DNA of 64,000 bases from contig ONYW01000003.1 of NCBI GenBank assembly GCA_900322215.1, positions 9,199-73,198 of the forward strand, given 5' to 3'. Source of the DNA: an uncultured Eubacteriales bacterium (GTDB lineage Bacteria > Bacillota > Clostridia > Christensenellales > CAG-917). A program made the position numbers and the translations under genes. The notes beneath the pieces were generated by a model that worked only from the letters and a program-made list of their open reading frames with translations, searched no databases and was not told the origin of the DNA. Each line of letters begins with the position of its first letter. The first letter of the stretch is position 1. Shown here piece by piece: positions 29,307-50,378 of the stretch.

Positions 29307-29340
29307 ATTATAATACACGAGGTATTACAAATCTATTACA
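29307..29340 (-). promoter_or_regulatory. Promoter of the pilin operon with tandem TGTAAT-N5-TGTAAT box
   Basis: Minus strand TGTAATAGATTTGTAATA (29340-29323), 10 nt, TATAAT (29312-29307). Same layout as at 50345-50378. Confidence 0.7.
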
Positions 29341-29368
29341 CATTTTAATCCCCGAAGGGGTGTTTTTG

Positions 29369-32300
29369 TTATACTTTGCGACGCTTACGAAGCAGCAAGA
29401 CGACAAACAAACCGATTGAGACGAGCAAGCAAACGACGATTATCGTTATCGTTGTGGCGACGTTTGCGGTGTATTGTCTCGTAAATTCAAAGACTTTTTC
29501 GTTGCCTGCCGCGTTTGTGATGACGATCTTATACTCGCCTTTTTCCTTGATTTCGGGGAGCTTCATCGATTCGGACGTAACGACGACCGTTTGTGTGAGG
29601 TTGCCGTTCTTATACACCTGAATGACGTCGCCGACCTGGCAATCCGTCAAAGTGACGTTCTCTATCGTAGAACCGCCGTTTTCAACACCGCTTAGTTGCG
29701 CCTTCGGGATGGTCTTGTCGATGGCGATTTCAAACGAGAATTGCGCCGACGACACCATAGAAGATACCGTGACGAGATACAAACCTCTTTCGTCAAAGAT
29801 CATCTTTGAATTGTTGGCGTATTGCGTGACGTTGTTCATATACGAGATAAGCACACCGTCGCCCGCGTCGTATTGCACGTTTGTGATCTTGTAGGTGTAC
29901 GGAGAGACGTATTCAAAGCGGGATATCTCGTGCGTTACGACGTAGAAGTAGAAGTACGTCTTGTTGCCGATATCGTCGGAGATGAGGAATTCCCATTTGC
30001 CCGTTTCGCCAAAGCCGATCGCTTGAGACGGATCGTATTCCACACCGTTGAGGACGATGAGGTCTATCTTTGAAGAATCCTTGTTGACTGTCACGAATCT
30101 CGCGCTTCCCTGCGTGATGACTCCGCCGTTTTCTACAGGTCTGTCATTGTAGCCGTTTATGAACGCAAATTCTACGAGAGTGTCCTTTTTGACCATTGTC
30201 GTGAAGATGTTGCCCGCAACGTCGGTGATATAGAAGCGATACGTGCCGTCCGCAGTCATGACGTCGCCGGACTTGTACGGCATTCTCTCTCCGCCGCTGA
30301 GCGAGACTTCACATTTTACGGACGAATCGAATTCGATCTTCACGTTGTCCTGCGTCATCACGACGTCGTTTATCGTGACTATCTTCATGAAGGACGCCAA
30401 ATCGATATCGAGCGTCTTGCGGACGAGGTTGACTTCAAACTCATATTCAAAGCCGTATTCGTCGACGTAAGTCACGACGCTGACGTATTCGCCCGCTTCT
30501 TCTCCGTCCGCCGGGTAGGCAACGACGAGAGGCATATCTGCCCTGTTGCCGTCAATGCGGATCTCGTAGCTTCTTGCGATCGTTTCAAACGTCACGTTGA
30601 AGTTGGAATACACTTTGTTTTGTTCGCCCGCGACGATTTGTATCGGTTCGGGATCTCTCGACGTGCGGATAGTACGGCTCACCGAGATCGTATCCGTGCC
30701 TCTATAATGCAGGAGCGTTTGCGTGACGTTGCCGTATTCGTTTCTCATCTTGAGAATATACACGCCGTCGCCGAGGCTTCCGATGACGTCGGTCAAGAGT
30801 TCGGGCACAAGTCCCGTGCCGTTGCTCTTCAACACGTCGTATGCGACGATTTGTTGCTCGCCGTATTGTACGATCGCTTGAAGAATACCGTCGTTTATCA
30901 TCTTTGTCGCATCAATGGAGAGTTTCTTGTTTGTATAGCCTTCCGCAAGTTTCAACGCCTTTTCGTTGTAGCCCGTCAGGTAGTCGTGTTTGAAGGTGAA
31001 CGACTGACTTGCTATCTCAAAACTGAGTTCTACGACGTTGCCGAACTCGTCCGTGATAACGATCTCGTACATTCCCTCTTCCTTCCAGGCGAGAGAGCAA
31101 ACGCCGGACGCGTCGTGGAGGTGAATTTGTTCTCCGCGGACGCCGTTGCGAGTGAGCACGTAGGTGATGTCTTCAAAGTAGATATCGATAGTAACGCTTT
31201 CGTTCGCCTTGAAGCTGCGCTTTGTCGAAGCGGAATACGTGTTGCTCGTTCCGTCCGTATACTCGGTCGTGACTACCACGCGGAGTTCGCTCGACATGAT
31301 GACGACAAACTTCGCGACTCTACCGTATATGTTCTTTGCGATGACGGAATAGAAGCCTTCCTCCGTCATGAGGATCTTCTTGTAGCCTTCGCTTGGAGTG
31401 TAGACGATTTGATAGTTCTCAAAGTCCGTCGTGTCGGAATGTGCGATTTCAACCGACGTCACGTTTTTGAAGCTTGTCTCGACGATGAAGAATTCGCCGT
31501 TGAGGTATATTATGTTGTCCGTCGACGTAGGCGTTACTTGTTTGCCTTCGTCGCCCGTTATTTCAAACGTAATCTCAGGCAATTCGCCGCATAGGATAGC
31601 CTTGACAAAGTACGGTTGATACTCTTCGCTGTACATGATGCGCATCGTCACGGACGCTTCGCCCTCTTTCGGTGCTTCCACCCTATAATATACGTGACCT
31701 TCCTCGTCTATTCTCACGAGAATGTCGACGCCAACCGTTTCCTCGCTCGTAATTTGATACGTCTTGTTTCTTTCCGCCTTGTTCAAATCCGGAATGATCA
31801 TCGAGGAGTACACTTGTTGATATTGATGAATCACGTTGCCGCTCTCATCGTAGACCACGGTATCTTCGGACAGCGAAAGTTGATATACGACCGAATACAG
31901 CGCGCCGTCGACGACTTCATAGCGGAGATATTGCTTCTTGCCGTTCTTCTCTACCATAAAGACGATGGTTGCGCTTCCGTCGTACTTGACTTCCATGTGG
32001 TCGTACGCATACGCGTCAGGCGGATAGACATATTGACCATCTTCTTCCGAGATAGAGTCCGCCGGGGACAGTTTGAGGCTGAGTTCGCGCTCGTCCACGA
32101 AGAGTTTTGCTCCGTCGGCTTCCTTGTTGACAAACGTAAATTCGCTTTCGTTGCCGAGCGTATCTCTTGCAACGACGCGGTACGTGCCAAAGCGGTTGAC
32201 CGTCACGTTGCTGACGCCTCCGCTCTCGGAGAAACTGCGAATGAGCACGTCGTCGACGTATACGTCTACTTCACTGCAGATAGAATCGTCGGTAAATTGC

Positions 32301-49032: not shown

Positions 49033-50313
49033 TTATATCCTCCTCTCCATCGGTTCGATCATGCGATTCGGATCTTTGAGTTCCGTCGCGGGCTTTAGTG
49101 TCGCCCCCTTGTTTTCCGCCGTAGGGTCGTCCACGTCAACGGATATGCGCGCACCCTTTTGTTTTTGAATACCTTTCATATACGCGCGCTCTGACACAAA
49201 TCCGCGATACAAAAGCTGTTGCTCTATCTTCATCTCGGAGATTTCGTATCTCTTTGCGGACGCAAGTCCATACAGCATAAGGAATCTCTTTATATAAAAA
49301 CTCTTTTTGTCGCGTTCGGCTTTTTTCTTCGCAATAGCGAGAATGCTGTCCGCTTCTTCCTTTTCGAGGTCTTGAAGGTCGTGCTCTTTGAGATACGCCC
49401 TTCTGTCCTTGAGCGCGTCCGCTTCAAAGAGTTCGGGCACGCGGGAGAAATCGCCTTTTGCAAGTTGTTCCTTGCGCTTGTCAAAATAATATTCGCTTAT
49501 GACGCCCGCTCTGAACGCTTCATAAACGGCGTTCTTTCTTGCCGCGATGCCGAGAGCGAGGTCTTTCTTTGCGCGTTCTCTCTGATATTCGCACTCGCTA
49601 CGGTATTCGCCCTTTGCCTTTTGCGCGCTCTTGTCCCACTTGTCGATGAGCCTTTTGAGCCTTATCGCCTCTTTGTTGAACGCCTCGTCAGCCTTTTTTA
49701 TGTCGCTTTTATGCACGACGTCCTGCTTGTGAAGGAACTCGTTGTAGTCCAAGTCGAGAGAGGAGAGATCCTTTTCAAACGCAACCGCGTCAAACGCGCT
49801 TTCGTCTCTTCCCATTTCAACAAGCGTGGCATGTACGAAAGAGCGAGGCTCTTTTGCAAACCATTGCGCGGTACCGCCCGCGTCGTCGCCGGTGAGCAAC
49901 ATGACTTGCGCCCCGAGCCTGTGCAACATATTGAGCGTTTTGACGGACAAAGCGTCGCTATAAAGGGCTCTGCGCTCGTCTTCCTCCACGCAAAACGAGA
50001 TCTCTTCGAGGTCGCCTATGCAATCCTTTGCGTTTTCGATAAATTGGCGGGTTGTAAGACTGTTTTTCAAGATAAATTCCATCTCGTCAAAAGGAACTTC
50101 TTCATCACTTTCAGTCTCAAGGTCAAAACCTTCCTGTTGATTTTGAGTAAGCAAAAGAGCGCACTCGAGCAAGCGGAGGTGGTCTGCCAGTTCCGCACGA
50201 GTAAGCGCTCTCTTTTGTGAAATATCGATGACGTCGACGGGTGCGCCAAAATAGGTTTGGCTCTCGTCAAACTTTTTTTGCAAGTGTTGATAAAGACTTT
50301 TCAAAGCACCCAT
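49033..50313 (-). CDS. Hypothetical protein homologous to the C-terminal half of the repeat unit of the 2881-aa protein
   Basis: Shares FDExxF/Y, G(V/R)(I/V)xxYxxxRxxQLxxG...LFEAD and F/YxxR(F/Y)xxxxGL motifs with the repeats. Start uncertain: the ORF opens at 50349; 50313 chosen for its GGAG RBS and the promoter position. Confidence 0.8.
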   Translation of the reverse strand: MGALKSLYQHLQKKFDESQTYFGAPVDVIDISQKRALTRAELADHLRLLECALLLTQNQQEGFDLETESDEEVPFDEMEFILKNSLTTRQFIENAKDCIGDLEEISFCVEEDERRALYSDALSVKTLNMLHRLGAQVMLLTGDDAGGTAQWFAKEPRSFVHATLVEMGRDESAFDAVAFEKDLSSLDLDYNEFLHKQDVVHKSDIKKADEAFNKEAIRLKRLIDKWDKSAQKAKGEYRSECEYQRERAKKDLALGIAARKNAVYEAFRAGVISEYYFDKRKEQLAKGDFSRVPELFEADALKDRRAYLKEHDLQDLEKEEADSILAIAKKKAERDKKSFYIKRFLMLYGLASAKRYEISEMKIEQQLLYRGFVSERAYMKGIQKQKGARISVDVDDPTAENKGATLKPATELKDPNRMIEPMERRI

Positions 50314-50344
50314 TTTTGCATAGTCTCCCATGATTTTCACATTC

Positions 50345-50378
50345 ATCATAGCACAGTAACTATTACAAATTTATGACA
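50345..50378 (-). promoter_or_regulatory. Promoter with tandem TGTCAT-N5-TGTAAT box and extended -10
   Basis: Minus strand TGTCATAAATTTGTAATA (50378-50361), 10 nt, TG-n-TATGAT (50350-50345). 16/18 identical to the box at 29323-29340. Confidence 0.7.

Follow-up and report, generated by a model that had tools for sequence, protein, structure and literature searches.

Paired 11-bp repeats ahead of two operons of a rumen Clostridia secretion locus, predicted sites for a response regulator encoded within it

A 64-kb stretch of DNA from an uncultured rumen Clostridia bacterium (hereafter the window; the 1.59-Mb assembly is genome G000) carries a secretion locus whose genes all lie on the minus strand, with a sensor kinase gene first, followed by a gene for a 426-aa protein, a response regulator gene, genes for giant proteins and those of a type IV secretion system (T4SS). 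Near-identical boxes stand upstream of two of its operons, one headed by the 426-aa gene and containing the regulator gene, the other headed by the pilin gene, and the question they raise is which protein reads them, and to what effect. A preliminary description of the locus held that its own response regulator, or else a host regulator of the OmpR family, activates both operons. The comparative tests and structural modelling presented here support the first of these and disfavour the second: the boxes are probably binding sites of the locus regulator (48236-49027), through which it would activate both promoters, that of its own operon included.

The two boxes, TGTAATAGATTTGTAATA ahead of the pilin operon (box 1) and TGTCATAAATTTGTAATA ahead of the 426-aa gene (box 2), are found on the minus strand just as the preliminary description placed them. 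They are identical at 16 of 18 positions, each is a direct repeat of TGTAAT(A) with an 11-bp period, and each is separated from its −10 hexamer by exactly 10 bp (CCTCGTGTAT before TATAAT for box 1, GTTACTGTGC before TATGAT, 50345-50350, for box 2). The further claim that both promoters have a poor −35 also holds, since a sigma-70 scan calls no −35/−10 promoter at either box; the same scan calls a near-consensus one for the kinase gene. The box 2 promoter has an extended −10, and the pilin promoter of the window has no TG ahead of its −10. When up to three mismatches are allowed, the window contains exactly two matches, against 0.09 expected, and two or more were seen in none of 100 shuffles; across the whole genome, the degenerate 18-mer occurs at these two sites only. 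The box pair is real and significant, and chance is no explanation for it.

One identification made in the preliminary description stood only in part, namely that the boxes follow the WalR-type consensus TGTWAH-N5-TGTWAH. Box 1 fits it, and resembles the WalR (YycF) site of Bacillota in being a hexamer direct repeat with an 11-bp period, but box 2 fails, having a C at a W position, as do the paralog boxes TGTTGCA and TGGTATA described below; unlike the WalR site, moreover, the box travels with the element rather than with the core genome of the host. The consensus has a single match in the window, a count reached in 19 of 100 shuffles and so not significant, and only five sites genome-wide, which form no pattern. 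We thus reject the WalR site, and, because box 2 fails the consensus, regard the match of box 1 as incidental.

Conservation in homologous loci had been proposed as a check. Loci whose regulators are 74–89% identical to that of the window have identical gene order. Ahead of their ~425-aa genes, the intergenic sequences have drifted apart, but the box, the 10-bp length of the spacer and TG-n-TAnnAT are kept. Box 2 is conserved ahead of the ~425-aa gene in L011, L013, L015, L019, L024, G051, L049 and L053, and box 1 upstream of the pilin genes in G044, G045 and G051, the pilin promoters coming from a pattern scan of genome contigs and from regions of these three genomes; more copies, in G044 and G051, precede modular giant genes located after VirB4. 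Aligned on the box, 17 promoters from 9 genomes or contigs carry 1.68 bits per column in the box, 1.41 in the −10, 0.67 in the spacer, 0.39 downstream and 0.26 upstream, values biased to the extent that several of the sequences were found by the box search itself; the sets found via regulator or protein homology are free of this bias and give the same picture. Spacer sequence varies across the 17 promoters and its length is constant. A weak pattern, nTTnnnnTGn, runs through the spacer, so that no part of it lies outside the second 11-bp repeat or the extended −10; in 13 of the 17, the −10 hexamer is directly followed by G.

A strict scan for the box and −10 in 185,579 species genomes gave 13 stretches. 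Six of them belong to T4SS loci with a gene for the regulator, ahead of the pilin gene, the ~425-aa gene or, once, a one-module gene. The other seven (L017, L025, L018, L022, L026, L023 and L027) precede unrelated genes, in genomes that have no close regulator homolog. We count them as chance or unrelated AT-rich matches, although some other winged-helix regulator may bind there. They include stretches in Pseudobacteroides and a Bacillota metagenome-assembled genome (MAG) ahead of small secreted proteins, and in two rabbit-gut MAGs ahead of a 224-aa protein. Within the genus, the box with its spacing is found in 2 of 41 genomes, both times in a copy of the locus, the second copy being at a contig end; such a site is lacking in 39 of the 40 genomes other than G000. 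Of 24 congeners, 22 lack the regulator, which, as judged from this distribution, belongs to the element rather than to the core genome.

An earlier suggestion that the genome be scanned for further members of the regulon was also productive. A mismatch-tolerant scan of the assembly recovers two diverged copies with the same N10 spacing on contig C34, at 20596 and 27126 (TGTAATAGATTCGTCATG-N10-TATAAT and TGTCATAAATTAGTTATA-N10-TATTAT), at least ~31 kb from the locus even were the contigs adjoining. Each stands upstream of a giant gene, for a 1927-aa or a 2013-aa protein (C34:14741-27060). These two proteins, the 2881-aa and 426-aa proteins of the window, and those encoded behind boxes in other genomes form one modular family. 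Its members contain one, two or three copies of a ~950-aa module, or half of one; the half is seen in the 426-aa protein, a paralog of the giants (BLASTP against them, E 1e-11 to 4e-15). Every large gene behind a box falls in this family, so that the four box sites of the genome make a functionally coherent set.

A stronger argument for the tie between box and regulator is provided by more distant relatives. Regulator homologs and paralogs at 30–71% identity have the arrangement heptamer-N4-heptamer-N10-TAnnnT close by. A repeat period of 11 gives 13–22 matches around these genes, against 0–10 for periods of 8–10 and 12–14, and at 9 of 12 loci the box lies 30–120 bp past the regulator stop codon, on the same strand and ahead of the next gene. 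The layout is found, too, in loci that have neither a T4SS nor the 425-aa gene and consist of a kinase, a regulator and one large surface-protein gene; because such distant kinase–regulator–target loci share it, only the regulator is constant among the neighbours of the box. As read from the alignments, the heptamer changes with the predicted recognition helix between subfamilies: SQYLSQ..L.KTL is paired with TGTMATA, LR.LIAD with TGT(T/A/G)GCA, and YLQKLKKDL with TGGTATA or TGTTATC. One 45%-identity member (L050, 8810-8931) has four successive 11-bp repeats, TTGTCATATTT, TTGCTATTTTT, TGGTATATTTC and TGGTATATTTG, followed by TGC-TATAAT, upstream of a 1759-aa YDG/CBM_X2 surface protein.

What kind of protein, then, is the regulator? 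Its receiver domain is clear (PF00072, E 2.8e-20), with residues D7, D8, D54, T82 and K102 invariant or nearly so among 50 homologs. The receiver is nearest to those of the BtsR, LytR and YesN types, which fits a kinase of the PF06580 type, and such a kinase is encoded at the head of the locus and also adjoins members of the regulator family in L049, L050 and L051. The usual partners of PF06580 kinases are regulators of the LytTR type. We rejected a LytTR regulator here, there being no LytTR match up to E 10 and the fold being a winged helix. The AlphaFold2 model (mean confidence score, pLDDT, 87) has a receiver, an OmpR-type winged helix (beta-sheet, three helices, beta-hairpin) and a short helical tail, and a Foldseek search with the whole model finds full-length regulators of the OmpR/PhoB type, with PrrA, DrrB, RpaA and KdpE on top.

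The output domain modelled alone gives a different ranking. Its six best matches in the PDB are AfsR and EmbR, both members of the family of SARPs (Streptomyces antibiotic regulatory proteins), aligned over ~148 columns with template-modelling (TM) scores of 0.63-0.69 (AfsR, 8k60 and 8hvr, E 1.2e-5, TM 0.64-0.66; EmbR, E 2.9e-5, TM 0.66-0.69). The domains of PhoB, WalR/YycF, SaeR and ArlR rank next, at E 3e-3 or worse, with only the ~84-residue winged helix aligned. About 45 residues follow the winged helix in the model and include two short helices, 226-231 and 235-240. Profile matches to AfsR and EmbR in the PDB are weak (E 0.03), and by profile SARP and PhoB types are inseparable. The modelled regulator is SARP-like, not WalR-like. 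In one source, homologs are labelled 'two-component SAPR family response regulator', a label that is annotation and not evidence.

If transcription is assumed to begin 7 nt after the −10, the two repeats of each box cover −40 to −30 and −29 to −19, and by this analogy the geometry equals that of two characterised activator sites. The afs box of Streptomyces coelicolor consists of two 11-bp repeats over −40 to −19, and in the AfsR initiation complex two protomers lie side by side, with contacts to the first 8 bp of both repeats, and hold sigma region 4 in lieu of a −35 contact (PMC10936776). The pho box likewise has two 11-bp repeats located 10 bp upstream of the −10 (PMC1906773, PMC3978041). 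With the AfsR system the window shares two 11-bp repeats in which the first 7–8 bp are conserved or contacted, a poor −35, and, with EmbR of Mycobacterium tuberculosis as well, the fold of the output domain, including the first helices after the winged helix. In contrast to AfsR, the regulator carries its DNA-binding domain on the C-terminal side of a phospho-receiver domain and is under the control of a PF06580-type kinase; the host is a Clostridia bacterium of the low-GC range, TGTAATA serves as the heptamer, and T4SS and giant-protein genes take the place of antibiotic clusters as targets. Unlike in other SARPs, the bacterial transcriptional activation (BTA) domain is cut to about two short helices (226-240), and with it the seat for sigma region 4 would be missing here. 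With PhoB of E. coli the regulator shares the combination of receiver and winged helix, PhoB being switched on by phosphorylation, and the sites share an 18-bp core in which two 7-bp direct repeats flank 4 bp of A/T-rich spacer (22 bp if counted as two 11-bp repeats), placed 10 bp upstream of the −10, where it replaces the −35. PhoB differs in that the receiver here is of the LytR/BtsR/YesN kind, the kinase is PF06580 and not PhoR-like, and the winged helix is closer to those of SARPs.

The mechanism that we favour can be set out as follows. The PF06580-type kinase, made from an ordinary promoter of its own, would phosphorylate the regulator at D54. Each box would act as a pair of 11-bp direct repeats, each the heptamer TGT(A/C)ATA plus four bases, on both of which two regulator molecules would bind head-to-tail and, by touching sigma region 4 and polymerase, replace the missing −35 contact. 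In this way the regulator would turn on sigma-A promoters that have only a −10 or extended −10, by phosphorylation-dependent class-II activation or what is called 'sigma adaptation'. The predicted regulon comprises four promoters, those of the operon of the 426-aa and regulator genes, of the pilin operon and of the two C34 giant genes, and the presence of the regulator gene inside the first of the activated operons would give positive feedback.

Rumen metatranscriptomes bear on where these transcription units begin. Eight contain the locus, as assembled contigs only. Contig depth for the pilin operon exceeds that for the giant gene upstream (15.4 vs 4.2, 9.9 vs 4.5 and 5.0 vs 0), and pilin-operon contigs end within 29201-29321 in five runs. 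Contigs of the kinase gene have their ends at 50514 and 50528; the interval 50207-50513 is crossed by no contig. These ends are consistent with, though not decisive for, separate transcription units with a promoter in each gap, the start positions themselves being predictions.

Several points weigh against the reading of the boxes as activator sites of a winged-helix regulator. The match of the regulator to Trans_reg_C (PF00486) falls below the Pfam cut-off (14.4 vs 26.2 bits, E 0.04); PF00486 is found in 18 of 24 homolog domains, at best with E 1.3e-6. No BTAD domain appears in the Pfam scan, and a full BTA domain (~150 aa, seven helices) is absent, so that the regulator resembles a SARP without being a full member of the family. 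The pilin intergenic region is read through in 2 of the 8 runs, and a related strain contributes one contig with its end at 29321, ~20 nt upstream of where transcription is predicted to start. Most of these promoters, finally, have an extended −10, and a protein sitting at −40 to −19 could repress.

The last point leads to the best-surviving alternative, in which the regulator occupies the boxes as a repressor: promoters with an extended −10 would fire by themselves, and the bound regulator would block polymerase until a signal took it off. Such promoters can function with no −35, most box promoters retain TG-n-TAnnAT, and the box overlaps the footprint of polymerase. Nevertheless, the orientation and spacing match those of activator sites exactly (10 bp from the −10 in the pho box, −40 to −19 in the afs box), and the pilin promoter of the window, having no TG, would be weak alone. 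Self-repression of the regulator's own operon is conceivable, but the N10 spacing, fixed across homologs of 30–71% identity, fits precise contact with polymerase better than simple blocking. We consider repression unlikely.

A second alternative is that a host OmpR-family regulator, WalR- or PhoP-like, reads the boxes and so links the locus to host physiology. In its favour, box 1 conforms to the WalR consensus, the opening heptamer of box 2, TGTCATA, is that of the E. coli pho box, and the genome encodes two canonical Trans_reg_C regulators. However, such regulators number 1–6 per genome in all 21 of the genus genomes checked, yet 39 of 40 others are without the box; given its presence in only 2 of 41 genomes, a conserved host regulon is unlikely, and the genus controls lead us to reject an OmpR-type host regulon. 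Moreover, the few and patternless WalR-type sites of the genome do not resemble a regulon, and a host regulator leaves unexplained why the heptamer changes with the adjacent regulator paralog. We think it very unlikely that the boxes are read in this way, and return to the locus regulator as their probable reader.

About as improbable is some other reader supplied by the element, either another DNA-binding protein or a dedicated sigma factor using the repeat as its −35. Room for such a reader exists in that no curated family is matched by several of the locus proteins, the 426-aa and 291-aa products among them; against another DNA-binding protein, the regulator is the only constant partner in the distant loci. 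The dedicated sigma factor we reject: there is no sigma-factor gene among the annotated locus genes, the −10 is of sigma-A type, and the 10-bp gap between repeat and −10 is too short for a −35. That the boxes are alike through mere shared ancestry of duplicated promoters, with no regulatory meaning, can be dismissed as extremely improbable, for although the two promoters on C34, 5' leaders included, are clearly a duplicated pair, the pilin and 426-aa genes are unrelated and share the box but not the flanks, and the box is conserved while flanks drift to ~0.3 bits and the spacer varies at fixed length.

A winged-helix activator that replaces the −35 is a textbook mechanism and not a new principle. 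What is new is the architecture of the regulator, its targets, and a family-wide rule that ties promoter layout to the recognition helix; the value of the analysis lies in annotation and in that family-level rule. In the literature, we found nothing specific on this regulator family or this locus type. We advance, as a tentative generalisation that could well prove too broad, that the window regulator belongs to a widespread, uncharacterised two-component class of Clostridia, with a PF06580 kinase and a regulator in which a LytR-like receiver is joined to a truncated SARP domain, with a fixed promoter layout (11-bp repeats at −40 to −19, N10, −10) and a heptamer readable from the helix, serving as a local switch that controls giant proteins, surface-located or secreted, and a relaxase-less T4SS like those of Mollicute integrative and conjugative elements (ICEs). 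If this is true, SARP-style sigma adaptation reaches beyond Actinobacteria and there operates under phosphorylation control. SARP-like effector domains fused to receivers appear to obey one promoter rule in many Clostridia. The pairing of heptamer and helix could permit regulons to be predicted from sequence across the family, which would also supply orthogonal promoter/activator pairs. For the locus itself, an unusual one in which very large modular proteins accompany the core of a T4SS and whose host is an uncultured rumen bacterium, the outcome is a testable regulon of four promoters, one sensor kinase and one regulator, so that work on the triggers of secretion or conjugation can start from a 34-bp element and a 263-aa protein.

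Table 1. Features of the locus, with positions in the window.
Feature	Position	Strand	Remarks
Kinase promoter, canonical sigma-A type, TTGATA-17-TATAAT with TG	51961-51989	minus	sigma-70 scan, 11/12
Sensor histidine kinase, PF06580 His_kinase + HATPase_c	50511-51821	minus	presumed partner of the regulator; Pfam
Two terminator hairpins, between kinase gene and box 2	50425-50508	minus	-34.6 kcal/mol, z -4.4
Box 2, TGTCATAAATTTGTAATA, TGTCATA-AATT-TGTAATA	50361-50378	minus	
Extended −10, TGC TATGAT, promoter of the operon of the 426-aa and regulator genes	50345-50353	minus	start predicted near 50338
~426-aa gene	49033-50313	minus	listed as a 438-aa open reading frame (ORF) from 50349; start MGALK
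Response regulator, 263 aa	48236-49027	minus	receiver + SARP-like winged helix + short helical tail (model)
Rest of operon 1: 1341-aa MBG-domain protein, VirD4-type coupling protein, 4131-aa protein	29369-48275	minus	
VirD4-type coupling protein	41674-44250	minus	
4131-aa protein	29369-41764	minus	
Box 1, TGTAATAGATTTGTAATA, TGTAATA-GATT-TGTAATA	29323-29340	minus	29319-29340 if taken as two 11-bp repeats
−10 TATAAT of the pilin-operon promoter	29307-29312	minus	start predicted near 29300
Operon 2: pilin, 291-aa, TrbL-like, VirB4-like and 2881-aa genes	15305-29264	minus	
T4SS pilin	28965-29264	minus	
TrbL-like membrane protein	26680-28089	minus	
VirB4-like ATPase	24001-26658	minus	
2881-aa three-module protein	15305-23950	minus	

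The features of the locus are collected in Table 1. The counterpart of the kinase promoter in G051 is TTGACA-17-TATAAT. The regulator gene begins 5 nt past the stop codon of the 426-aa gene. In all homologs, the 425-aa-type protein opens with MG(A/F/V)LK, with a GGAG-type ribosome-binding site ahead, and on this comparison the true start of the 438-aa ORF is its fourth ATG, at 50313, the ORF as listed being 12 codons too long. The overlap of TATGAT with the first ATG of that ORF is thus harmless, and the predicted leader of the 426-aa gene, up to its start at 50313, is ~25 nt.

The 291-aa protein is encoded between the pilin and TrbL-like genes. The 4131-aa and 2881-aa proteins receive no recognition from Pfam. 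The TrbL-like protein matches the NCBIfam families MMCAP2_0566 (E 3e-40) and Mbov_0396 (E 2e-32) of Mollicute ICEs, which suggests a T4SS core of the Mycoplasma-ICE type, despite the host being a Clostridia MAG. About 2 kb past the kinase gene, on the plus strand, lies a gene for a protein with a helix-turn-helix (Xre-type) and a Fic domain (53613-54536), whose neighbours, FMN reductase and formate-tetrahydrofolate ligase, look like host genes.

A second regulator of the family is present elsewhere in the genome (C47:12037-12660, 39% identity). It follows a possible kinase gene, with no T4SS nearby, and ends at alignment residue ~179. A different frame still encodes the C-terminal part, and the gene is probably a pseudogene with a frameshift, or else a product of faulty assembly.

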